DNA of 34,880 nucleotides from an uncultured Granulosicoccaceae bacterium (GCA_964409445.1 CAYPDN010000005.1:1-34880), one strand, 5' to 3'; shown: positions 3,714 to 34,880, counted from the first letter of the stretch. The notes: generated by a model not told the origin, from the letters alone. Made by a program: numbers and translations.

Positions 3714-3920
3714 CTAAGAGGGTTTATGCCAGCGAAAATCACAGTCGCGGCCCCACCCTCACGTAGTAGTCGTAATCCCCGCAATCCGGCAATTGCAGCC
3801 ATGTAGAAGTACGAGATGAGATAATTAATCTGACCTTTGGTACCTGCAGCTTCCATTTATTCTGCAAATACATCTCGCTTAACGGTTTTTCAATACCGGT
3901 GGTTTTTTGAGGAGGCAGTG

Positions 3921-6563
3921 ATGAATGACGATACCGGTCTGTTACCAGACCAGAAAACAGAAACATCAACAGCTAAAACCAGAATCGACCAGGCTGGTAA
4001 CCGACCAGTTGACAATGCTTCTGCTGCCAAAACCGAAAACGACCTGCCTTCTCCCAGCCATGTAGTCGGTATCGGAGCATCCGCCGGGGGGCTGACTGCT
4101 CTGCAAAACCTGTTTGACCGCATCCCGGAAAACACCGGAGCCGCTTTTGTTGTAGTGCAGCACCTGTCACCCAACTTCAACACACTGATGGACGAACTGC
4201 TGGCCAAGCATTCAAAAATGTCTGTCACCCTCGCCGAAGATGGCGAACACCTGTTACCCGATCATATCTACCTGATGCGGCCGAATCGCAACCTTATTGT
4301 GGCCGAGGGTAAATTGTTTCTCAACGAGATACACCGAACCGGACACCCCAACCTGCCCATCGATGAATTTTTCAGATCCCTCGCAGTTGATGCACAAAAC
4401 CGCTCAGTCGGTATTATTCTGTCCGGCACAGGCAGTGACGGAAGTCAGGGTGTAAAAGCCCTGCGGGAAGCAGGTGGTTTAGTGATGGCTCAACAACCCA
4501 ACGAGGCAGAGTTTGACGGTATGCCCGTCTCTGCAATCCGCACCGGATACGTTGATGCAATCGGTGATGTCGATGAGCTGGCCAGACAACTGGTTTCATA
4601 CATTCGCCATCCACTAACTGCCAGTAAAAACCGGGTGTTCAGAGAACATCTAGCCTCAAACAACGACTTGCTGGAAAAGATCTTTGTCAGACTCCGTGTC
4701 GCCACAGCTATCGACTTTTCGCTCTACAAACCGTCCACGATAGCTCGCCGAATCGAACACCGCATGGGTATCAACAATATAGAAACGCTACCCGCTTACG
4801 CCGAATTGCTTGATCGAAAGTCTGAAGAATTCGCGTTACTTAAATCAGATCTTCTGATTGGCGTTACACAATTTTTTCGCGATCCGGACGCCCACGCTGA
4901 GCTGGCAAAATCGGTACTACCTGCGATAACCAGCAACAAATCAGCTGATACACCAGTAAGAGTATGGATGGTGGGTATATCAAGTGGCGAAGAAGCCTAC
5001 TCGCTTGCCATAGCATTTAGTGAGCTGCTTGAAAGCTCAAAAACCACAATTCCGATAAAAATATTTGCAAGTGACGCTGACAGTGGCTCTATCGACTATG
5101 CGTCCGCAGGTGTTTACCCACCGTTTATTTCTAACGATGTTAGCGAAAAACGGCTGAGTAAATATTTTAAAATGGATGAAGCAGGAAACTACGTAGTAAA
5201 CAATCGGCTGCGTAACATGATTGTTTTTGCAACCCACAACGTACTCGAAGACCCACCGTTTTCAAATATGGACCTCGTGGTTTGCCGCAACATGCTGATC
5301 TACTTCCAAGCGGAGGCGCAAGAGCGAACTCTTGCACTGTTTAATTTTTCCCTGCGCGATGCAGGCTATTTGTGGCTTGGAAGTTCTGAATCACTGGGAG
5401 GGCAGGCAGATAATTTTAGTGAGCTTAGCAGCACCTCAAAAATTTGGCGTAAAACCCGATCATCACGCATTCCAATTCGCCATATCAATGCTGACCACTT
5501 GCGCAAAACATCAGCCAAAACAGCAAACAGGCCATCCCACGGGCTGACTCAACGCGGCGCTTTTGAACAGAAAAATATTTACCATAATGTTCGTGATCGA
5601 TTGCTGGATGAGTACGGTCCTGACGGAATACTACTCAACCCTGAACATCAGGCAGTACATATTTTTGGTGATTGTAAACACTATCTGGACAGACACAGCT
5701 CCGGACACGTCACCACTCACATTGACTCATTAATTGTGCCTTCTCTCGGTGTGCCTGTTTCTACCTGTCTTGCCAAAGCCACCGAGTCTGAAACCGGTAG
5801 CCATCGGTTGAACGATGTACCTATGCATCACCCCGATAAGCCGGATAAATTAATCAGCATCACCGCAAGACGTGTCACAGATGTTTCCCGCTCAAACGAA
5901 ACCTATTATCTGCTGCTGTTTTCGCAATTCAGGGACAGACCAGTTGAGCGCATCGAAGTCCCGAACATCTCTAATCAGGAGACATACCAGGCTGATACGC
6001 ACACACGAGAGCGGTTGCGCGAACTCGACTTACAGCTGAATGACTCACGTCAGGAGCTTCGCAATGCCTACGCCGAACTCGACACTACCAGTGAAGAGTT
6101 ACAGGCTACCAACGAAGAGCTAATGGCAGCCAATGAGGAACTTCAATCTACCAATGAAGAACTCCAGTCAGTTAACGAAGAACTCTACACTGTTAACACT
6201 GAGTACCAGGAAAAAATAGCTGAACTGATGGAACTGAATACAGATCTGGACAATCTGTTAAATTCGACCGGCTATGGAATAATTTTTCTCGACAGCACTC
6301 TTTCAATCAGACGCTTTACACCGCTAATGGCAAGATACATCAACCTCTTGCCTGGAGACGTTGATCGCCCGATCGGAGATTTCAAAATCAGTCTCAACTA
6401 CCCCGATTTGTTAACCGATCTGAATCAGGTGCTTAGTTCAGGTGAAACCATCGAGAAAAAATCAAGCATGAGTGGAAGCGATAATCAGCTGTCAATTAGT
6501 ATTAGTCCGTACATTTCAACGGATAAAACTATCAATGGCGTTGTTATGACAATCAGAGATTAA
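3921..6563 (+). CDS. CheB methylesterase - CheR methyltransferase fusion with heptad coiled coil and C-terminal PAS domain
   Basis: CheB-like: VVGIGASAGGLTAL, VVVQHLSP, ILSGTGSDGSQG. CheR-like: FFRD, RVWMVGISSGEEAYSLA, IFASDADSGSI, LVVCRNMLIYF. C-terminal PAS-like segment: GIIFLDSTLSIRRFTP. I chose the ATG at 3921 because GAGGAGG (3909-3915) precedes it by 5 nt. The track ORF starts at 3837 with a non-homologous extension. Confidence 0.88.
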   Translation: MNDDTGLLPDQKTETSTAKTRIDQAGNRPVDNASAAKTENDLPSPSHVVGIGASAGGLTALQNLFDRIPENTGAAFVVVQHLSPNFNTLMDELLAKHSKMSVTLAEDGEHLLPDHIYLMRPNRNLIVAEGKLFLNEIHRTGHPNLPIDEFFRSLAVDAQNRSVGIILSGTGSDGSQGVKALREAGGLVMAQQPNEAEFDGMPVSAIRTGYVDAIGDVDELARQLVSYIRHPLTASKNRVFREHLASNNDLLEKIFVRLRVATAIDFSLYKPSTIARRIEHRMGINNIETLPAYAELLDRKSEEFALLKSDLLIGVTQFFRDPDAHAELAKSVLPAITSNKSADTPVRVWMVGISSGEEAYSLAIAFSELLESSKTTIPIKIFASDADSGSIDYASAGVYPPFISNDVSEKRLSKYFKMDEAGNYVVNNRLRNMIVFATHNVLEDPPFSNMDLVVCRNMLIYFQAEAQERTLALFNFSLRDAGYLWLGSSESLGGQADNFSELSSTSKIWRKTRSSRIPIRHINADHLRKTSAKTANRPSHGLTQRGAFEQKNIYHNVRDRLLDEYGPDGILLNPEHQAVHIFGDCKHYLDRHSSGHVTTHIDSLIVPSLGVPVSTCLAKATESETGSHRLNDVPMHHPDKPDKLISITARRVTDVSRSNETYYLLLFSQFRDRPVERIEVPNISNQETYQADTHTRERLRELDLQLNDSRQELRNAYAELDTTSEELQATNEELMAANEELQSTNEELQSVNEELYTVNTEYQEKIAELMELNTDLDNLLNSTGYGIIFLDSTLSIRRFTPLMARYINLLPGDVDRPIGDFKISLNYPDLLTDLNQVLSSGETIEKKSSMSGSDNQLSISISPYISTDKTINGVVMTIRD
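6090..6215 (+). repeat. Six tandem 21-bp (7-codon) imperfect repeats encoding a heptad coiled coil inside the CheB-CheR gene
   Basis: SEELQAT/NEELMAA/NEELQST/NEELQSV/NEELYTV/NTEYQEK, in frame with the CDS. This is a coding repeat, not a CRISPR-like array. Confidence 0.85.
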
Positions 6564-7076: not shown

Positions 7077-9659
7077 TTGCACTACTCTTTACTTTATATA
7101 AGTCAATTCGCAGTCCCCGTTTCCAGCAAAACACTCGACGATATAAGAACCCAGTCTGCTCTTCTTAATCAGTCAGCCAATGTCAGCGGACTGCTACTTT
7201 CAACACCTGGCTACTTCTGCCAGTTTCTGCAAGGCAGCAGAATTGATGTTGAACAAACCATGTTGAGAATTAGCAAAGATTCCCGGCACAGAGAAATTGC
7301 TACTCTGCTAAAGACAGATTTACCGGAGACGCTGTTCCCGGGCTGGGGTATGGCAACAAGCCTTATACCAGCAGGCGATATAGCGACAGAAATCGAGCTG
7401 GCTTATCGGGATCGATTGGCCGACCTCAGTGCTGTCGACAGGCTCATGTCAATCATGCAGAGGTTTCGACCACTCGATGGTGTCGAAAACCCCGCCGTCG
7501 TCATTGACTCAGAATTTAATAAAGAGCTTGCCCTGACAAAACTCGCAACTAACAATGATGCAGTTCAGGGCTTGCTGGAACTGGGTAAAGCAATATTTAC
7601 TGATTGCGATATCGCACTGGCAATTCGTGAACCGGGTGATAATGGCTATAGCTCTCAGGCAAATACCGAAGCAGATAAAAATGCTGTTGCACTTTTGATA
7701 AACCAACTACCAAACAGGCATTTCACGCAAAACGCAAAGTTCTGCAGGCTTGATCATAACGGAAGCCTTCAATGGTCACCTGCCGCCCAACCCGAAAACC
7801 CGACTTCTGCGATTACCACCTTCCCAAATTCAGGCTACATCGCTGCAACCGGGATAGCGGTAACAGACGCTAAACAAGAAATCATTGGCACCTTGTGGAC
7901 GTTAAGTAGCGTAGCAGGAACACTGGTCAACGCAGCGGACACAAACAAACTTACGCAGTTGGCCCTATCCATAGCTGAACAAATTGAACTTCGCCGTGTA
8001 GCTCTTCTAACCGACTTACAAAAACAAACATCACAGCGCCAACAGCTCAATATCGCCGCAAATCTACGCCGACTTGAAGCGGTAGTTAATGTAGCCAGCA
8101 GCGCGATTGTCGCACTCGACCGAAAAGGCCGCATCCTCATGATCAACGATGCCGCACGCAAGCTGTTTGGTTTTCATAACGAAAAGGTACCATTCGACTG
8201 GCCGAGCCCAACCGGTTTTCTGGACCCGGGAACACTCATTCCGGTTACTGATAGCAGTTCTCCGCTGCACTATGCGATAGCCAGGGCAGATCCTGAATTC
8301 AACAATAAAATGAAGCATGCGATCAAAAATAAATTGTTTGCACGGAAATGCCATCTATCCAATGATCTGTGCTTTCTTCGAGTAACAGCCACCGAGGTCG
8401 ATGAGATCGATTCTGCAATATGGTCAGTACTTGTATTTGATGATGTTACGGCACTTGAGTCCGGCAGAGAGCGCATTAGACGCAGTGATCGTCTTGAAGC
8501 TCTGGGTCAGCTAACTGGTGGAATAGCCCACGACTTTAACAACATACTTGCAACTATTCAGAGTTCAGTGGAGCTTGCGAAGACCGAAACGGATCAGGTA
8601 CGCCAAAATCAACTTCACGATATTGCCATAACCAGTGTGGAGCGCGGTGCAGCACTCACCAATCGCCTGATTACTTTTGCACTGGCAAATCCAACCGTCG
8701 CGGAGGTACACAGCTTAACTGACGTGATGCAGTCACTGCTTGAACTCGCCGAGAGCGGTATTGCTGAAGATATTAATTTGACTATCTCACCTTTCTCGCC
8801 ATCTGTCGGAGTGAAGTGCGACGCGGGGCAATTGGAAAATGCACTTTTAAATATACTGATCAATAGTCGTGATGCGATTCGCGACAGTGGTGTCGGCGGT
8901 CAAATGTTGGTGGAAGTCAATGTGATACCACAAGACCAAAGCCAATCAGGCAACAATAGTGGTTCTGATGGAAACACACTGGTAGAAATTGTATTGTCAG
9001 ACGATGGACCAGGCATGTCAGAGGAAGTTATTCGGCGTGCAACAGATCCTTTCTTCTCGACCAAGCGCGACAAAGCAAGCAGCGGCCTGGGGCTTTCTAT
9101 GGTTTACGGTTTTGTACAACAGAGCGGTGGAGAATTGTTAATAAAAAATCTTCGCGACTCAGAAAACCCGCTATCCGGCACCCAAATTACTTTAACACTC
9201 GAGTACGCAACCAAAGAGCCACCTGCCCCACAGGCTGCAACAGACAATCACGCCAGTGACACGGCTGCAAATCATCAAACCGCGAATATATTGCTGGTCG
9301 AAGATGAACCGGAACTCGCACGAGTGCTGGAGCTCACCTTGCGGCGAAGTGGACACAATTTGCAAGTAGCTCATAACGGCCACGACGCAAGGATGATTTT
9401 ACAAAGCGATATTGAACTTGATTTACTCTTAACCGATATCGTACTGCCAGGAGCAATAGACGGGTACGCTCTGGCAAAAGATGCATCGAACTTACGGCCT
9501 GAACTGCGGGTTGTATACTTAAGTGGATACGCGCAGCAACGTTCAGACGCATCTTTACTGGGACCAGTTTTGTCTAAGCCTGTTTCGACTCGGCAACTGA
9601 TGGCTGTCGTACAAAGGGAGTTGCAAACTGCAGTTGATCTTTCAACTGTTGAATCCTAG
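7077..9659 (+). CDS. BLUF - GAF-like - PAS - HisKA/HATPase - REC hybrid sensor histidine kinase (putative blue-light sensor kinase)
   Basis: N-terminal BLUF: HYSLLYISQ (Tyr), LLNQSANVSGLL (Asn), YFCQFLQG (Gln), ISKDSRH, FPGWGMA (Trp/Met). DHp: LGQLTGGIAHDFNNIL. N/G boxes: ENALLNILINSRDAI, DDGPGM, FFSTK, GLGLSMV. REC: ILLVEDEPE, DLLLTDIVLPG, VVYLSGY, SKP. TTG start, tightly coupled to the upstream REC gene. Confidence 0.85.
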   Translation: MHYSLLYISQFAVPVSSKTLDDIRTQSALLNQSANVSGLLLSTPGYFCQFLQGSRIDVEQTMLRISKDSRHREIATLLKTDLPETLFPGWGMATSLIPAGDIATEIELAYRDRLADLSAVDRLMSIMQRFRPLDGVENPAVVIDSEFNKELALTKLATNNDAVQGLLELGKAIFTDCDIALAIREPGDNGYSSQANTEADKNAVALLINQLPNRHFTQNAKFCRLDHNGSLQWSPAAQPENPTSAITTFPNSGYIAATGIAVTDAKQEIIGTLWTLSSVAGTLVNAADTNKLTQLALSIAEQIELRRVALLTDLQKQTSQRQQLNIAANLRRLEAVVNVASSAIVALDRKGRILMINDAARKLFGFHNEKVPFDWPSPTGFLDPGTLIPVTDSSSPLHYAIARADPEFNNKMKHAIKNKLFARKCHLSNDLCFLRVTATEVDEIDSAIWSVLVFDDVTALESGRERIRRSDRLEALGQLTGGIAHDFNNILATIQSSVELAKTETDQVRQNQLHDIAITSVERGAALTNRLITFALANPTVAEVHSLTDVMQSLLELAESGIAEDINLTISPFSPSVGVKCDAGQLENALLNILINSRDAIRDSGVGGQMLVEVNVIPQDQSQSGNNSGSDGNTLVEIVLSDDGPGMSEEVIRRATDPFFSTKRDKASSGLGLSMVYGFVQQSGGELLIKNLRDSENPLSGTQITLTLEYATKEPPAPQAATDNHASDTAANHQTANILLVEDEPELARVLELTLRRSGHNLQVAHNGHDARMILQSDIELDLLLTDIVLPGAIDGYALAKDASNLRPELRVVYLSGYAQQRSDASLLGPVLSKPVSTRQLMAVVQRELQTAVDLSTVES

Positions 9660-22428: not shown

Positions 22429-24585
22429 TTACTGTTTAGCTGCACTATCTATTATATCGCTAAGCACATTTGCCGCTTCCTCGAGGATGATGTCGGGAAA
22501 GCCGCCATCGTCATCTCCATCGCTGCCTGATGCACCAAACGCTTTGCGGTAAAGCTCCTCACGTTCTTCTCGATCAGTTCTTCGCTCTTGAATTTCCTGC
22601 TTTCTATCAGCCTCCAGAAGCGAGACGTCTCGCTGCGCACGAGCATCACGCTGTGCCTCCAACTCTTCTATTAACAGCTTAAAAGAGTTGTTGCCACGGT
22701 AGCGCGATTCGTGTCGGAACTGTACATGGCTATAGTTTGGTTCACCCTCTGACCAGGCATCAAAGTTAGCTACAGCCACTTCGGCCCACGGCAAGGCATT
22801 GTCCAGGCTGCGCTCGCCTTGTGCATCAGAATCCATGGCGGTGGGAAACAATACGTCAGGTACAACACCGCGATGCTGAGTACCTTCGCCATTGACGCGG
22901 AAGAACTGCGCGATGGTTACTTTTAATTGTCCAAGCAAGCCTTCTTTATCCAGCGGCACAACGCTTTGCACTGTGCCTTTGCCGAAAGTTGGCTCACCGA
23001 GTACCACTCCGCGACCGTAGTCCTGTATCGCTGCCGCGAAGATTTCTGAAGCAGATGCACTGCCGCGATCAACTAGAACAGCCAGCGGGCCACCGTATAC
23101 CACTGAAGAATCGGTATCATCTTCTGTATTTACATCGCCCCTCGCATCTTTGATTTGCACGATCGGGCCACTTTCTATAAACAAACCGGTTAACTGTGTG
23201 GCTTCAAGCAGTGAACCACCACCGTTGCCACGCAGATCAATGATGACACCATCAACACCACCATCTGTACTGGCCAGTTCACCCAGCAACCGCCGCACGT
23301 CACGGGTGGTACTTCGGTAATCTGGCTGTCCCTGCGCTCTGGCCGCAGAGTCCAGATAAAAAGTCGGCAGATCAATCACTCCAACGCGACGTGCCTCGCC
23401 CGGTTTTGGCACTTCAACTATAGAGCTTTTAGCTGCCTGCTCTTCCAGTTTGATTTTGTCACGCACTAACGTGACTATCTTAGGTGGCGAACCTTCCGGT
23501 GCGTTGCCTGGCAAAATCTTTAGTCGCACTGTTGAACCTTTCGGCCCTCGAATCAGATCTACCACGTCATTCAGCGGCCAGCTGACTACATCGACAATTT
23601 CCTCTGTTTTGCCATTACCGACGCCAATAATCCGATCATCAACACCGACCTGCTCACTCAGTGCCGCCGGACCACCGGCAATAACACTACGAACTACGGT
23701 ATTTTCATTTTCGGTTTGCAGAGCTGCACCGATACCCTCCAGTGAGAGACTCATGTTTATTCGAAAATTTTCAGAGGTCCGCGGAGAAAAATACGATGTA
23801 TGCGGCTCTACTGACGCGGTATACGAGTTAATGAAAAACTGAAAAACATCATTGGCTGCCAGCTGGCTGACTCGCCGCTCCATGCGATCGTATCGTTGCT
23901 CCAGTGTCTCTACCAGATTGTCGTCAGCCTGCTCCGCCAAACGCAGGTTTAGCACATCATTCTTAACCCGCTTGCGCCACAGCTCGTCCATCTCTTGTTG
24001 CGACTGCGCCCATTGCGCGTCTTCACGGTTAAAGGTGTACTTTTCATCAATGGTAAAGTCAAAATCACGCTTTAACAGAGCGCGAGCGAATATGGCGCGC
24101 TCCTCCACTCTGGCCCGAAAGCGCTTGAAGACGTCGAATACCGGATTCAATCGCGCGTTGCGAAGTGCATCATCAAATTTGCGACGATAAGGATCGAACT
24201 CTGCCAGGTCACTGGCTAGAAAAAAGTTCTTCTGCGGATCAAGTGTCTCCAGATATCGATCAAAGATTTGTTCAGACAGCTCATCGCCAACCTGCACCCG
24301 CTTGTAGTGATAGCGCTGCATCAGCTGGACAATACCTGCAGTTGCCTGTCGATGCTCCCGCGTCGGTTCAAGCGAATCCAGTGCGACTGCCCGATTGTCT
24401 GCAGACACTGCAACGCTCACCAGCGCACTGGCAGCAAAAACCATAATCCGAGCGAACTTTCGACCGAATCGGCCAGAAATACGCCGTACGGCTAGCGTAA
24501 AATCACTCTTCAGGGGAAGCCGACTAAGCCACTCAAACCGGCGCTGTGGACCGGTACAACGGGGGTGTTGCTGCATTAGATACAA
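22429..24585 (-). CDS. prc: Tail-specific (C-terminal processing) protease, S41 family
   Basis: The length and N-terminal helical domain fit Prc. PDZ segment: GIGAAL...VIAGGPA. S41 core: [10 protein letters not shown]...[34 protein letters not shown]. The start is probably downstream: the ATG at 24444 begins the signal-like [15 protein letters not shown]. Confidence 0.9.
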   Translation of the reverse strand: [718 protein letters not shown]

Positions 24586-25107: not shown

Positions 25108-26478
25108 TTAGTGAGTCAGTATTTGTGAGAGGAATCGCGAAGGCTGTTCTGTCGTTAATGGCAGAATCCATTCGCTGGACAATTGACGCCTGTTGATCGT
25201 TAGTAAATTAAGAGACGGATCAACCATCAACTGAGACGGCCGACTATTAAGCGCACAATTGGCTTTCACGGCGACACTTATTGGAACGTGTCCCTGTCGC
25301 TGCCAGTCTTCCTCAAGAAAATGTGCAAATTGAAGCAGCATATCTGGTATGCAGGACATTTTTCGGCGCTGTTTTTTGGTGAGGTAATCAATAGGATCTA
25401 CCGTCCACTCCTGAGTATCGGTTTTAACCGTGTAGATTGCACTGCCCCGTTTAGATCTGAGCTTCATGCGCCAGCTGAATCGATGACCATCTTCGTTCCA
25501 GGCGACGTTCCCGGGCAGCGCCCAGTTTCGAAAAGGAACAGCGATCTGCAGCAACAGCCAGCTGAACATCACTAACAAAACAAGCTGGTGCCTGGGGGCG
25601 AACGAATGATCAAACGGTTTAACCGACATTGAAGTCAGCGACCTGCTGGTAAATCGAGCAGCGAATTTCTTTGGCCAGTCCGGATCAAGAACCAGCGTAC
25701 TGGCGAACAAGGTAAACCACGGAAAGATACCGATGTTAAAAACAAAGTGGTTCATCACATGGAATACGAAATAAACAGCCAATACCCATAGTCGCGTACT
25801 TTTGAACAATAGCAATGGTGCCCCCACCAGATGCAACAGGACAGCGCCATAAGCGCCGAGTGCTATACCGATATCACTGGTCAGTGTGGTAAAAAACGGC
25901 GGGAACTGCGGTCTGGTTTCAACCATCCACATACGCAGTGGCTCAAGGTTGAGCCAGTCAGGATTAAGCTTTACCAGCCCCGCGTGTATCAATATTATTT
26001 CAAGCTGGACTATCAACACTATGATTGCCCAGCGCGGTATGGTTCTGGATGCGATAGATGCATCGCGGCGGGCATCCAGCGACAAATAAGCGTTTGCCGG
26101 CACAAACAGCATAACGACGCAGAACAAAATCACCATGTAGTAGTGATTCAGGTAGAGCGCTTCATCAAGCAGAAATGCGTAACTGAAACCCACCGTAAAT
26201 ATTAGTAGCGCGAGCCGGTAATGGTACCCAACCATAACCGCAATGGCCGCTATCGTAAGCACAGACCAGTGCAGATAAAGACCGATGCCCGGCCAGGGTT
26301 CCACCCATTCGAAGTACTTATACTTAAACAGCATTGACGGCTGCAAATACTTGCAGGACAGACAAAGGAAAAACTGATTGACGCTATCGAATATTAGAAG
26401 AATTCCGAAACCGATTCTGAAGATAGCAAGGGAACTCGCATCAACCTGATCAAAGAGTTTTTGGAATAATTTATACAT
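25108..26478 (-). CDS. HTTM-domain membrane protein (vitamin K-dependent gamma-carboxylase-like)
   Basis: N-terminus VDASSLAIFRIGFGILLIFD followed by a polytopic membrane region typical of HTTM proteins. Confidence 0.75.
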   Translation of the reverse strand: MYKLFQKLFDQVDASSLAIFRIGFGILLIFDSVNQFFLCLSCKYLQPSMLFKYKYFEWVEPWPGIGLYLHWSVLTIAAIAVMVGYHYRLALLIFTVGFSYAFLLDEALYLNHYYMVILFCVVMLFVPANAYLSLDARRDASIASRTIPRWAIIVLIVQLEIILIHAGLVKLNPDWLNLEPLRMWMVETRPQFPPFFTTLTSDIGIALGAYGAVLLHLVGAPLLLFKSTRLWVLAVYFVFHVMNHFVFNIGIFPWFTLFASTLVLDPDWPKKFAARFTSRSLTSMSVKPFDHSFAPRHQLVLLVMFSWLLLQIAVPFRNWALPGNVAWNEDGHRFSWRMKLRSKRGSAIYTVKTDTQEWTVDPIDYLTKKQRRKMSCIPDMLLQFAHFLEEDWQRQGHVPISVAVKANCALNSRPSQLMVDPSLNLLTINRRQLSSEWILPLTTEQPSRFLSQILTH

Positions 26479-31064: not shown

Positions 31065-31309
31065 CTAGCCCGGATTATTCATAAGGATTCGGCTTCCAGA
31101 GTCAATAACGCTAAACAGGTCACTCGATCGCCTGAGAAACGTGGCTTGCCACGTGCCGACGGGGATCGTGTGAGATGTGACGCGCTATTGGCTGCTGGAG
31201 TCGAATAGACAGACTGTCATTTAAGTCATGACACTAAAATACGATGAACCTCTACAAATACAGTACTTTGCCTAGATACTCTCGTCGCCTTATGAATAAT
31301 CCGGGCTAG
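31065..31309. repeat. 245-bp element bounded by perfect 22-bp inverted repeats (MITE-like element or long-range RNA stem)
   Basis: CTAGCCCGGATTATTCATAAGG at 31065-31086 is the exact reverse complement of 31288-31309, and 201 bp lie between them. The right arm contains the phosphatase stop codon (31306-31308). No transposase ORF is inside. Confidence 0.7.
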
Positions 31310-32031
31310 GCAGGTGGAGAAAGCGCCTCTTTACCCTTATCTGTCAATATCCAGCAACGCGCCTCCTCAAACACGGCTGCTGTGAGGTGCCGACCATAGC
31401 CCGAGCCAGTATCCAGATTGACCCGATTGCCATAATGCTGCGCTTTCTCAACTGGTGTGTGCCCATGCACAACTAAAAACGGGTGCTGGCGTTTGTCCTC
31501 CAGAAATTCGTAACGTATCCAGAGTAGTTCGTGCGGGTCTTGCTTCTCAATCGGCACACCAGGGCGAATACCGGCGTGCACAAAAAGAAGATCGTTTTCC
31601 TGATGTGAGTGTGGCAGTGAGTCCAGAAACTCGATGTGCTCGGCAGGCACCGCTGCCAGTGAGCTCATATAAACATCTTGCTTGTGATCACTATCATCCA
31701 CCTTCACACCGTAGCTCGCGAGTGTCTCTTTACCTCCCAGTCTGTCGTCCAGCCAGTGGTAGTCGACAGTCAACTGAGCCTGACAGTCTTCCATAAACAG
31801 GGAGAACATCTGATCGTGGTTTCCCTTCAGACAGACCCAGTTTTTATTTTCAGCAAGGCCATTCATTAAAAACTCAATTACACCGCGGCTTTGCAATCCA
31901 CGGTCGATATAGTCACCAAGAAAAACTACGCGCGCGTCAGAACCACCATCGTTTTCTATTTTTTTAATTGTTCCCTTGAGCATATCCAGCTCACCATGAA
32001 CATCGCCAACGGCATAAATTTTGTTCTTAAT
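31306..32031 (-). CDS. PPP-family metallophosphoesterase (PrpA/PrpB / lambda-phosphatase-like Ser/Thr phosphatase), probable ATT start
   Basis: Motifs GDVHG (upstream of the first ATG), GDYIDRG, GNHD, VHAG and HGHTP. In-frame codons upstream of ATG 31983 read IKNKIYAVGDVHGELD. GGAGA (32041-32037) lies 5 nt before ATT (32031-32029), and an in-frame TAA is at 32049-32047. Confidence 0.8.
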   Translation of the reverse strand: MKNKIYAVGDVHGELDMLKGTIKKIENDGGSDARVVFLGDYIDRGLQSRGVIEFLMNGLAENKNWVCLKGNHDQMFSLFMEDCQAQLTVDYHWLDDRLGGKETLASYGVKVDDSDHKQDVYMSSLAAVPAEHIEFLDSLPHSHQENDLLFVHAGIRPGVPIEKQDPHELLWIRYEFLEDKRQHPFLVVHGHTPVEKAQHYGNRVNLDTGSGYGRHLTAAVFEEARCWILTDKGKEALSPPA

Positions 32032-32113: not shown

Positions 32114-34880
32114 CTATGATACACCGGCCTTGTTGTACTTGATTAAAGTTCTGGCTCTTTGGGCAAGTAAATCGGTAAAATCGTCACCTTTAAGGATAGC
32201 GCGTTTTCCACTACCAATGCCGGTGGTGTAGTCCTTAACGAAAAACGGCACACTGTCATAGCGACGCACCACATCCCCTAAGGTATAAACGTGCTGCCAA
32301 CTGGCAATAATATCTGCAGCTAACTCACGATTTTCAACGATGGATTGATTATTCTGCAGTTTTATCTGCAGCGAGTTTAGTTCTACCATCGACCGGACCT
32401 TTCCTCCATACCGCCCTGTCTTTTTTAACGCTAACTGCTGACCGGCCACAGATTTAAATTCTGCATTCACTGCTGCAATATAGGGAGCGACAGATACTTT
32501 AGTTGCAGCGTGCACATTACTCACCCGGTGGCGGTGAATACCCGCCTCCGCGTTGAGGTAACCATAAGCGTAAGGGCCATCCACCTTTATTAGCACAGGG
32601 TCACTATCATCAAGTGGTTCGCAAAGCAGTGTTACCTCACGACTCATCTCACGACACCAGGCGAGATAAATCTCATATAATTCATCCCTCCCTAAACAGG
32701 AATCACCCACAGGCTCCAATAACACCAGCGCCTCGTGATTATACTCATCGCCAAAAACCAATAGCTCCAGTTCAGATCGTTCAATGTCCTTATCCAGCAA
32801 GTGTCCGGCAGTGTCAGCATAGGCTAACTGCTCTCGCGCCGGACTGTGCTCAATAGTTCGCACCAGATCTTCAACCCGGTTGCTCAGTCTTTCGAGACGA
32901 TTGAGTGTCTCGTTGATAGACTCTGCGCGCTTTAGCATATGCATTGCATTATCACGATTTTGCCAGAACTCACCAGTGTCTCTGCTTTGATCAATCTCTG
33001 CCAACTCTCGTCGCAAAGCTTTCACATCGATCGACTGTTCCAGTGATTCAATCCGCTCAGCACGTGTTGCAAAAGCATTCTGTAACTCTGCAATTCTGAC
33101 TATGCTGGTGGCTGCTTTCTCATTTATGAATTCGGGCCTGGGTTTACTTACATCACTGTCCGAAAACGACTTAACGATTGTTCTGCCATCGACACTTGAC
33201 AGGTTAACCAATGCGCCTGCCGGAACATGGTTCTCCATCAGGAATGCACCAATTGGCAACGCTAAGCGACGCTGCACTTCGCGCTTTAACGCCCGTGCAC
33301 CATATCTGTCTGAATAGCCGTATTGCACAATCGCGTCAACCACACTGTCATCTATGTCGATAATCAGATTTCTACTAACGATACCACTGCGCTTGATAAT
33401 CTTTTTTACCTCTCCCTGAGCAATCTGACGAACATGAGATTTATCAAGTGCGTGAAAAACCAAAACATGTTGAAATCGGTTTAAAAATTCTGGTCTGAAA
33501 TAGTTCTCCAATACGTGCAGCGGAACTGTGGAAGTTTCTTCCTGCGTGAATCCGGGAGTTGGTCGCGACATTTCACTCGCTCCCGCATTGGTAGTACATA
33601 TCACAATAGTATTGCGAAAATCGATGGTCTGGCCATCAGGTTGGGTCATGCGGCCTTCATCAAGCAGCTGCAACATTAAGTCATAAATGTTGCTGTGTCC
33701 TTTTTCTATCTCATCAAACAGTATTACCTGAAAAGGTTGTGCTCGAACCGGATCAATTAACAACGCAGACGAGTTCGCGCCACCCTGTCCGATCAGCTGT
33801 TGAAATGAGTTGTAGGTGGCGTACTCCGACATATCAAATCTGAGTAAGCGTTGCGCACTTCCATACAGATACTCCGCCAGCGCTTTTGAAAGTTCAGTCT
33901 TTCCAACACCGGTCGGGCCTGTAAACAGGAATGTACCAATTGGCTGATTCGGATCACGCAGTCCTGACTTAAACAAGGTTATTGACTCAACCACCGCTTC
34001 GATCGCCTGTGCCTGACCAAAAATTCGCTGTTGAAACCACTTGCGGATTGTGCCGGCGGACACAGTCATGTTGCGTGAAAAAACAAAAGCTGGTAACCCG
34101 GTATACATTGAGAATACTTTGTCTACGAAGACAGTATCGATCGGCTCAACTCGGTTGATCGCTGCTTTTTCCTGAGCGTAGCTCTGAACTCTTTCTATTA
34201 ACGCTAAGCGAGTACCGGGACCGGGATCCGGAGGCGTAAAGTTTTCAGTCAGTTCCTTGAGGTGTGGATGAAATTCATCATCAAAAGGATGATCGATATA
34301 AATCTCGGCTTTTTCAGTGACTATTTGATCCACCTGCTGTGGTGACAACGGCTCAAGCAGTATTCGGTGAAAAAGGTCAACAAAGCCCGGCACTCGCAGC
34401 ATGCGCTTATAACCTTCCGGAGTGACTTCACCCACAAGTACAACATCACCACTCTTCATCAACGGGCGCAGTATATCCAGACTACTGTGCTTGTCGTTTG
34501 AAGACTGCCCCATTCGTGCGAGGTTTGCTACATCAACAAAGTACAACACAGCATTTCGTTTCGCAGCGCTTTCAACATAGCCCATTAGCTTGGTGGGCCA
34601 TTCACCAAGATAACGTGTTCCCACCAGAATAGAAGAGGCCGATAGCTCCAGACATTGCTGACCAGACTCTTTAAGTGCAGCAGCTATACCCAGAATGGTA
34701 CTGGTTTTACCACTTCGGGCCGGACCAACCAGCAATACCGATTTACGCTGCTGGATAGCCGCAATGCCGTCTCGAATCTCTTTGTCGCGAAACCTGGGTA
34801 CAAGCGCACTGTCCCGCTTAACCATTTTAGTGAGGTTACGGCTATCCCGGGACAGATCATCTTCAATCTTTTTTGATCCT
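32114..34880 (-). CDS. Clp/Hsp100-like double AAA+ ATPase fused to a C-terminal class-I release-factor-like (PCRF + RF-1-like) module; 5' end probably outside the window
   Basis: D1: LLVGPARSGKT, with Walker B position LYFVDV. D2: FLFTGPTGVGKT, VILFDEIEK, ICTTN, PEFLNRF, YGARALKR. C-terminal ~320 aa are collinear with RF1/RF2: EFWQNRDNA, GDEYNHEALVLLEPVGDSCLGRDELYEIYLAWCRE, GPYAYGYLNAEAGIHRHRV, SVAGQQ (at the GGQ position), VRRYDSVPFFVKDYTTG. The frame is open from 34825 to 34880 (GSKKIEDDLSRDSRNLTK-M...). Confidence 0.85.
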   Translation of the reverse strand, partial: GSKKIEDDLSRDSRNLTKMVKRDSALVPRFRDKEIRDGIAAIQQRKSVLLVGPARSGKTSTILGIAAALKESGQQCLELSASSILVGTRYLGEWPTKLMGYVESAAKRNAVLYFVDVANLARMGQSSNDKHSSLDILRPLMKSGDVVLVGEVTPEGYKRMLRVPGFVDLFHRILLEPLSPQQVDQIVTEKAEIYIDHPFDDEFHPHLKELTENFTPPDPGPGTRLALIERVQSYAQEKAAINRVEPIDTVFVDKVFSMYTGLPAFVFSRNMTVSAGTIRKWFQQRIFGQAQAIEAVVESITLFKSGLRDPNQPIGTFLFTGPTGVGKTELSKALAEYLYGSAQRLLRFDMSEYATYNSFQQLIGQGGANSSALLIDPVRAQPFQVILFDEIEKGHSNIYDLMLQLLDEGRMTQPDGQTIDFRNTIVICTTNAGASEMSRPTPGFTQEETSTVPLHVLENYFRPEFLNRFQHVLVFHALDKSHVRQIAQGEVKKIIKRSGIVSRNLIIDIDDSVVDAIVQYGYSDRYGARALKREVQRRLALPIGAFLMENHVPAGALVNLSSVDGRTIVKSFSDSDVSKPRPEFINEKAATSIVRIAELQNAFATRAERIESLEQSIDVKALRRELAEIDQSRDTGEFWQNRDNAMHMLKRAESINETLNRLERLSNRVEDLVRTIEHSPAREQLAYADTAGHLLDKDIERSELELLVFGDEYNHEALVLLEPVGDSCLGRDELYEIYLAWCREMSREVTLLCEPLDDSDPVLIKVDGPYAYGYLNAEAGIHRHRVSNVHAATKVSVAPYIAAVNAEFKSVAGQQLALKKTGRYGGKVRSMVELNSLQIKLQNNQSIVENRELAADIIASWQHVYTLGDVVRRYDSVPFFVKDYTTGIGSGKRAILKGDDFTDLLAQRARTLIKYNKAGVS

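Follow-up and report, generated by a model that had tools for sequence, protein, structure and literature searches.

What might an ATP-driven Clp-type motor gain from carrying a release factor that has seemingly lost the means both of reading stop codons and of releasing peptides? This question is raised by a gene at the end of a 34,880-nucleotide stretch of DNA from an uncultured Granulosicoccaceae bacterium (GCA_964409445.1 CAYPDN010000005.1:1-34880; the whole stretch, at its full length, is here called the window), whose product joins two AAA+ modules (D1 and D2) to a C-terminal module of release factor (RF) type (Table 1). A first reading, made without database searches (the sequence-only reading), had proposed that this module has lost both the catalytic GGQ motif and the stop-codon decoding loop, and that it is probably retained as a codon-independent, non-hydrolytic ribosome-binding adaptor for the motor. 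We find that residues 575-903 are a full-length, four-domain homologue and paralogue of RF2, and we lean slightly towards the view that this RF2 paralogue, stripped of its catalytic and decoding motifs, serves the Clp motor as such an adaptor. The reading frame remains open up to the window end (34826..34880, (-) strand), and the identical database protein (P0001) has 927 residues and begins 24 codons ahead of the first ATG in the window; the true start may therefore lie outside the window. In the full-length AlphaFold model (predicted local distance difference test score, pLDDT, 89.2; predicted template-modelling score, pTM, 0.58) the segments of low confidence are the N-terminus (residues 2-4), a loop at 426-429 and the linker at 557-570, the last being predicted disordered (block pLDDT 34). 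The loop and the linker would fit a docking loop and a tether that are both flexible, and as modelled the RF2-like module is flexibly tethered to the motor through a disordered linker of ~35 residues.

The relationship to RF2 is evident from several kinds of comparison. A Pfam scan of the protein matched the PCRF domain (PF03462) over residues 605-776 (E 3.4e-11, 43.8 bits against a cut-off of 24) and returned no match to the RF-1 GGQ domain (PF00472). The NCBIfam prfB model (TIGR00020) matched with E 3.8e-19, covering only model positions 5-197 of 353, and its 68.9 bits did not reach the equivalog cut-off of 370. Searched as a single sequence, the module matched RF2 structures no further than the recognition hairpin (E 7e-13). 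When compared with the Protein Data Bank (PDB), a profile of 33 family members (alignment A1) spanned RF2 residues 6-356 with E 8.3e-30 and matched RF1 with E 2.8e-19, and by this measure the module is nearer RF2 than RF1. HHalign placed it on E. coli RF2 over 291 columns (probability 99.1). An AlphaFold model of the module built from alignment A1 (pLDDT 94.5, pTM 0.90) found only RF2 and RF1 among its top 50 Foldseek matches in the PDB. The best superposition was on free, compact E. coli RF2 (1gqe; TM-score 0.73, root-mean-square deviation 5.2 Å), followed at lower rank by compact, free T. thermophilus RF2 (2ihr, 0.60) and pre-accommodated ribosomal RF2 (6ost, 0.54; 5mdw, 0.51), while open, accommodated ribosome-bound RF2 gave TM-scores of ~0.42-0.46 and deviations of ~15 Å. 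The fold is thus predicted to be in the compact conformation of free RF2. With bacterial RF2 (prfB) the module shares FW in domain 1, E-x-G-x-H-R ahead of the recognition hairpin, Q-N-x-R-[ST]-x-x-x-N at the start of helix 7, and R-x-Y with KD..TG in domain 4; its best-retained RF cores are domain 1 and the GxHR, RRYD and KD..TG elements of domain 2/4. Unlike RF2, it lacks GGQ, SPF and GxGGxE, and it sits behind a 540-residue AAA+ motor.

Loss of the catalytic motif is clear, although its register differs from that first proposed. Both glycines and the glutamine of GGQ matter for peptidyl-tRNA hydrolysis (PMC6514570, which lists Frolova 1999, Mora 2003, and Shaw & Green 2007). The sequence-only reading held that GGQ had become GQQ at residues 795-797, and the strings and codons that it quoted are indeed in the protein, SVAGQQLALKKT at residues 792-803, HRHRVSNVHAATKV at 764-777 and GQQ as GGT CAG CAG at 32443..32435. 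A literal GGQ to GQQ point mutation has in its favour that SVAGQQLALKKT superficially resembles the GGQ string of RF2, and that residue 795 is Gly in 46 of 97 full-length relatives and residue 797 Gln or His in 86. The profile-based alignment proposed for confirming the register at 32435-32443 was made, and it put the site elsewhere. Both HMMER (the A1 profile against B. subtilis and E. coli RF2) and HHalign (E. coli RF2) aligned the 20-residue GGQ segment of RF2, ungapped, to QLALKKTGRYGGKVRSMVEL; therefore GGQ corresponds to T803-G804-R805 (ACA GGG CGG, 32419..32411), 8 residues from the position first claimed. MAFFT with 13 canonical RF2 sequences shifted it by one residue further, to G804-R805-Y806, so that three methods place GGQ 8-9 residues downstream of GQQ. 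The structural prediction is consistent with this. Both AlphaFold models have a strand at residues 794-803 (AGQQLALKKT), confidently predicted and containing GQQ, a hairpin tip at 804-808 (GRYGG) and a return strand at 809-816, in a strand-loop-strand-strand-helix topology that is that of RF domain 3, with the tip at the position of the GGQ loop. Because GQQ recurs at residues 55-57 and residue 796 is hypervariable across the family, the resemblance to GGQ is coincidental, and the point-mutation reading is effectively excluded.

Under the corrected register the conclusion that the motif has been lost stands. In the window protein Arg occupies the position of the catalytic Gln, and a string search found no GGQ tripeptide anywhere in its 903 residues, hence no intact GGQ elsewhere in the module. 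Among the same 97 relatives, position 803 (the first Gly) is mostly V, K, T or I and Gly only once; position 804 (the second Gly) is Gly in 93; and position 805 (the Gln) is Gln in 47, the remainder being R, A, L, V or T, with the result that none has GGQ at the homologous site. As to whether homologues also carry GQQ or other non-GGQ variants, the homologous site is non-GGQ throughout, and GQQ is not conserved: at 795-797 the middle position is variable, and GGQ itself occurs there in 2/97, consistent with chance. Counted as RF motifs, GGQ or SPF is found in 0/23 divergent fusions (916-1404 residues) and 0/97 relatives, against 10/10 canonical RF2 sequences from the same search that have both GGQ and SPF (SPY in one). 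Two further GGQ strings were rejected as catalytic motifs: one near the C-terminus of a Herpetosiphonaceae relative, which aligns to the 'LDG..D.F' tail helix of RF2, and one at residue 920 of the relative P0178, which lies far downstream of the place of domain 3 (judged by position alone).

The elements by which a release factor reads its codon have fared no better. The claim that the SPF/PxT loop is shortened and its motif gone was confirmed by HMMER and HHalign: the recognition hairpin has 8 residues fewer than its RF2 counterpart, and neither SPF nor an RF1-type PxT loop was found within the RF-like module. As modelled by AlphaFold, the hairpin has strands at residues 762-768 and 771-781, joined by a tight two-residue turn at S769-N770. 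RF1 and RF2 carry GxGGxE at the N-terminus of helix 5, reading the first base of the stop codon; the family pattern here is P-[IVL]-G-x4-A-R-D. By comparison with E. coli RF2, ~17-18 residues are missing from the end of helix 7 together with the switch loop ahead of domain 4 (HMMER, HHalign), and the modelled helix 7 has 15 residues, about half the RF2 length. To judge from these alignments, all three codon-reading elements, namely the SPF hairpin, the helix-5 GxGGxE element and the switch loop, are degraded. The absence of GGQ, the Arg in place of Gln, the degraded decoding elements, the short helix 7, the compact model and a relative without domain 3 (below) together give good support to the description of the module as non-hydrolytic, codon-independent and not a termination factor; by its motifs, it is unable to read stop codons in the manner of a release factor and is without the catalytic motif.

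This loss is not a peculiarity of one gene. Over 100 relatives (90% clusters) share 38-84% identity with the full-length protein; they belong to Gamma-, Alpha- and Deltaproteobacteria/Myxococcota, and Planctomycetota have longer HEAT-repeat forms. Fusions are also present in Verrucomicrobiota and Chloroflexota, and the closest reference genome is a Granulosicoccaceae metagenome-assembled genome (60% identity). A profile search of 1.84 billion representatives gave 78 clusters (50% identity) at E ≤ 1e-30, and a genome scan with the single protein returned mainly ordinary ClpC/ClpA genes after the first six loci. In one Herpetosiphonaceae (Chloroflexi) metagenome-assembled genome, the fusion (L010, 5296..8637, 1114 residues) has domain 3 replaced by ~17 residues and keeps domains 1, 2 and 4. 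Because the motifs are absent in the relatives, in the divergent fusions and in this domain-3-less form, the loss is old and general. All RF-like modules checked are fused to a motor; two apparently stand-alone modules of ~330 residues were rejected as artefacts, P0126 beginning 22 nucleotides from a contig edge and P0130 being preceded on the same contig by a frameshifted AAA+ D2. We note that the longer fusions in Planctomycetota (P0110-P0116) and Verrucomicrobiota (L011/L012, Akkermansia), of ~1110-1585 residues, carry N-terminal HEAT repeats (PF13646/PF02985) or other extensions, and that their RF-like tails are much more divergent.

Such a record of motif loss could in principle be that of a decaying, functionless remnant of a fusion. 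Against this, the ratio of nonsynonymous to synonymous substitution rates (dN/dS), taken from a comparison with an 84%-identical relative (L088) in which dS is ~1 and the values are approximate, was 0.13 for the module and 0.10 for its domain 3; the motor gave 0.05 and the linker 0.17. Purifying selection acts on the module. The module is also kept across Proteobacteria, Myxococcota, Planctomycetota, Verrucomicrobiota and Chloroflexota, its fold is predicted very confidently, and domains 2-4 contain invariant or near-invariant residues (E760, G762, H764, R765, A799, L800, K801, G804, R811, S812, N832, R854, R855 and Y856), several of which match RF core motifs (E-x-G-x-H-R; R-x-Y). Decay is, as such, the least probable of the readings considered here, and effectively excluded.

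Conservation at the tip of domain 3 raises instead the question of residual catalysis. A family-specific motif, RALKxxGx[YFL]GG[KR][IV]RS (residues 794-812, 32390..32446 (-)), is among the most conserved stretches, has basic flanks and contains G804, and this tip might be a variant hydrolytic loop comparable to the GxxQ of Vms1 type, the more so as the residue after the near-invariant glycine is Gln in 47 of the 97 relatives; it has been argued for the VLRF-1 family that the di-glycine is not strictly required (PMC6514570). However, half of the family has no Gln at this position and the window protein has Arg, the divergent subfamilies lack G-Q or a conserved Gln, and domain 3 is dispensable in one lineage. 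The tip is moreover predicted to form a tight β-hairpin and not a flexible loop, and with domains 2/4 at the decoding centre a helix 7 of about half length would scarcely bring it to the peptidyl-transferase centre. We therefore judge residual catalysis unlikely, with little probability left to it.

The motor to which the module is attached is of recognisable Clp type and has unusual features of its own. The NCBIfam ClpA model (TIGR02639) matched residues 25-528 on model positions 204-718 with 300.8 bits against a cut-off of 993, and the ClpB model gave 297.8 bits against 1232. In common with ClpA/ClpC, the motor has two AAA+ modules, the second followed by its small domain (alignments to ClpB, ClpC and ClpA structures), a 'KYRG'-type D1 pore loop and intact D2 Walker A and B motifs; unlike them, it lacks the N-domain (no Pfam match to Clp_N was found in the protein), a ClpB-type middle domain, the D1 Walker-B Glu and the D2 GYVG pore loop, which is removed family-wide by a deletion of ~5 residues, and it bears the 330-residue RF-like extension at its C-terminus. 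The two rings are thus split in an uncommon way, D1 having a pore-loop Tyr and no Walker-B Glu, and D2 having ATPase motifs and no GYVG pore loop. At the position of the ClpP-docking loop (IGL in ClpA, VGF in ClpC) the motor has an xGF tripeptide in which G425 and F426 are invariant (97/97), and position 424 is I, V, L, M, P or F in the family (I, V, L or M in 79/97). The best PDB match is an engineered ClpB chimera with a ClpA loop (5ofo), which scores above wild-type ClpB. The xGF loop may be of ClpP-docking type and would then couple the motor to ClpP.

How, then, might the two halves work together? We suggest that the module would dock in the factor-binding and A-site region of the ribosome through its retained domain 1 and domain 2/4 core, independently of the codon and without hydrolysing peptidyl-tRNA, and that it would thereby bring the hexameric motor, probably with ClpP, to ribosomes, where the motor could extract, remodel or degrade its target, be it a nascent chain, a factor bound there or the whole stalled complex. 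Ribosome binding is proposed because of the analogy with Pelota/Dom34 and Balon, and because of which parts of the module have been retained. The retained cores of domain 1 and domain 2/4, a dN/dS of 0.13 and the disordered tether make the adaptor role plausible. The most elaborate form of this proposal, which we offer only tentatively, is a self-contained bacterial ribosome quality-control machine, in which a GGQ-less, codon-blind RF2 paralogue would occupy the A/factor site of ribosomes that are stalled or idle; the Clp ring covalently attached to it, seated on ClpP through xGF, would pry the complex apart or else extract and degrade a trapped factor or the nascent chain, and the machine would be a one-polypeptide bacterial counterpart of Pelota-ABCE1 or Vms1-Cdc48.

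The main rival to a ribosome adaptor is re-use of the RF2 fold away from the ribosome, as a substrate-recognition, RNA- or tRNA-binding, oligomerisation or auto-regulatory domain whose ribosomal ancestry is history only. No motif of ribosomal function is left, both helix 7 and the switch loop are short, the fold is predicted locked in the compact form, the conserved surface motifs (RALKxxG..GGKxRS, ARD and RLDRL) are unlike those of release factors, and the gene neighbourhoods are neither conserved nor translational. Yet the best-kept parts of the module are domain 1 and the cores of the superdomain that binds the decoding centre (GxHR, RRYD, KD..TG), the Chloroflexi variant drops domain 3 and keeps exactly domains 1, 2 and 4, and the known GGQ-less proteins of RF type (Pelota, Balon) all act on the ribosome. 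On balance, non-ribosomal re-use appears to us a serious though rather improbable explanation.

Several further observations weigh against a ribosome adaptor coupled to a Clp motor. In the tip of domain 3, A799, L800, K801, G804, R811 and S812 are ≥90% conserved, which is unexpected in a vestigial loop and hints at some function. The compact conformation was predicted by AlphaFold, possibly as an echo of the 1gqe crystal form. In the window protein Pro, and not the usual aliphatic residue, precedes GF in the putative docking loop, and the missing D2 pore-loop Tyr together with the dead D1 Walker B makes processive threading uncertain. In ClpA-type rings, moreover, a C-terminal adaptor would be on the face nearest ClpP, an awkward position for delivering substrate. 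Finally, the gene neighbourhoods are not conserved and give no functional hint, six of them having nothing in common; two loci (L004 and L006), from distant genomes, have the fusion gene within ~5 kb of rplU-rpmA-obg and cspA in one genome and of pth-ychF in the other, a proximity that is probably coincidental.

The ribosome adaptor that we favour would have functional counterparts in other systems, from each of which it differs. Pelota/Dom34 (with Hbs1 and ABCE1) and Balon are likewise proteins of RF type that have lost the stop-codon motif and the catalytic Gln or GGQ and occupy the A site without a codon, although for our module binding to the ribosome is inferred. Dom34 lacks the catalytic Gln, and Pelota passes the ribosome to an ATPase for splitting (PMC6514570); Balon, which has neither NIKS nor GGQ, needs no mRNA to bind the A site (PMC10901736). 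These proteins have the unrelated archaeo-eukaryotic release factor (aeRF1) fold, in contrast to the bacterial RF fold found here by Foldseek, and the module has no central domain of the aeRF1 type (RNase-H-like), so that the resemblance is functional only; they are also separate polypeptides delivered with EF-Tu-type GTPases, whereas the module is fused to AAA+. In eukaryotic ribosome-associated quality control, Vms1-Cdc48 similarly combines an RF-like protein without canonical GGQ and a double-ring AAA+ unfoldase (PMC6514570). Vms1, however, has the aeRF1 fold, keeps the catalytic Gln and recruits Cdc48 non-covalently by a VIM motif, while the fusion joins its module covalently to a motor of Clp type and shows no conservation of the Gln. 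Among paralogues of the bacterial RF domains, PrfH, ArfB/ICT1 and mitochondrial MRPS35 have taken rescue or structural roles, and MRPS35 is also without the catalytic Gln (PMC6514570). PrfH lacks domain 1 and keeps GGQ, the reverse of the module, in which domains 1 and 2/4 are present and GGQ is absent; ArfB/ICT1 consists only of a GGQ domain and a basic tail, MRPS35 is one of the ribosomal proteins, and none of these is fused to an ATPase (PMC6514570). A 2019 survey of bacterial RF paralogues lists RF1, RF2, ArfB, PrfH, ICT1, C12orf65 and MRPS35, and no AAA+ fusion (PMC6514570). We found no published description of an AAA+-RF fusion among the open-access full texts searched. GGQ-less RF paralogues and Clp-type motors are each of a known kind; what appears to be new is a GGQ-less RF2 paralogue fused to a Clp-type motor.

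Table 1. Features of the AAA+-RF2-like fusion gene, in order along the protein; residues are counted from the first ATG in the window.
Feature	Window coordinates	Strand	Residues	Remarks
AAA+ (D1+D2)–RF2-like fusion gene	32114..34825	(-)	903 in all	Open reading frame
AAA+ ring 1 (D1)	34136..34789	(-)	13-230	ClpA/ClpB-like; NCBIfam ClpA TIGR02639 and ClpB/ClpA structure alignments
D1 Walker A GPARSGKT	34703..34726	(-)	34-41	
D1 pore loop GTRYLGEW	34598..34621	(-)	69-76	Aligns to ClpB GAKYRGEF; Tyr in ≥90% of family
D1 Walker B remnant LYFVDV	34529..34546	(-)	94-99	Catalytic Glu replaced; family motif D-[IV]-W-N
AAA+ ring 2 (D2)	33467..33946	(-)	294-453	Pfam AAA_2, E 1.8e-44
D2 Walker A GPTGVGKT	33896..33919	(-)		Intact
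D2 pore-loop-1 region LIGQGGANSSALL	33758..33796	(-)	344-356	ClpA/B 'GYVG' tyrosine loop deleted family-wide
D2 Walker B LFDEIEK	33701..33721	(-)		Intact
P424-G425-F426	33548..33556	(-)	424-426	Aligned to ClpA IGL ClpP-docking tripeptide; flexible loop of low pLDDT
D2 small domain	33212..33448	(-)	460-538	Pfam ClpB_D2-small, E 3.5e-11
Linker	33095..33211	(-)	539-577	Least conserved part of the protein
RF2-like module, four RF domains	32117..33103	(-)	575-903	Pfam, profile, HHalign, AlphaFold, Foldseek
RF domain 1 (helical bundle)	32753..33094	(-)	578-691	RF2-like 'FW' motif present
Helix 5 N-terminus PVGDSCLGRDE	32681..32713	(-)	705-715	Occupies the place of the RF GxGGxE element
Trimmed recognition hairpin	32483..32542	(-)	762-781	Turn S769-N770 at 32516..32521
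RF domain 3 remnant	32297..32446	(-)	794-843	β-hairpin, third strand, short helix 7 (15 residues)
G795-Q796-Q797 'GQQ'	32435..32443	(-)	795-797	Codons GGT CAG CAG; within β-strand 794-803; aligns to RF2 D-V-Y
T803-G804-R805, positional equivalent of GGQ	32411..32419	(-)	803-805	ACA GGG CGG; domain-3 hairpin tip; HMMER, HHalign
RF domain 4	32117..32272	(-)	852-903	RF-type 'RRYD ... KD ... TG' core

Beside the fusion gene, the window contains a homoprotocatechuate-type catabolic cluster and, downstream, a metallophosphatase gene, an arrangement that is syntenic only in the closest relative (84% identical). Membership of an anti-phage defence system was considered and rejected, the PADLOC matches (PDC-M37B, DolB; residues 259-421) being to the generic AAA+ core only, in neighbourhoods that are housekeeping and variable. 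For the metallophosphatase open reading frame (31306..32031 (-)), the listed ATG at 31983 leaves out the first metal-binding motif, GDVHG, which is in frame directly upstream of it and has no ATG, GTG or TTG before it; an ATT at 32031..32029, six nucleotides after AGGAG, is a plausible rare start that would give a product of ~241 residues. Elsewhere in the window, 25108..26478 (-) encodes an HTTM domain and a vitamin-K-dependent gamma-carboxylase lumenal domain (E 2.7e-71 and 1.4e-39) and has as its neighbour the gene of a tail-specific protease (22429..24585). The gene at 3837..6563 (+) codes for a CheB-CheR fusion that ends in a PAS domain and is followed by a BLUF-PAS-histidine kinase-receiver hybrid (7077..9659 (+)), and by their domains this pair may form a blue-light-linked signalling module.

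Bacteria rescue stalled ribosomes by means of tmRNA, ArfA/RF2, ArfB, PrfH and RqcH. To our knowledge, the RF-type domain in the known bacterial rescue systems either hydrolyses peptidyl-tRNA or is absent, and we know of catalytically dead, codon-blind A-site binders only from the aeRF1 fold (Pelota, Balon). The source databases label the present family merely 'AAA family ATPase' or 'ClpC', labels that this analysis corrects. If the ribosome adaptor reading is true, the fusion, conserved in several phyla, would represent a new coupling of the ribosome to ATP-driven remodelling or proteolysis. As such, it would be a candidate for how some bacteria, many of the carriers being uncultured marine and soil lineages, clear ribosome-bound proteins.

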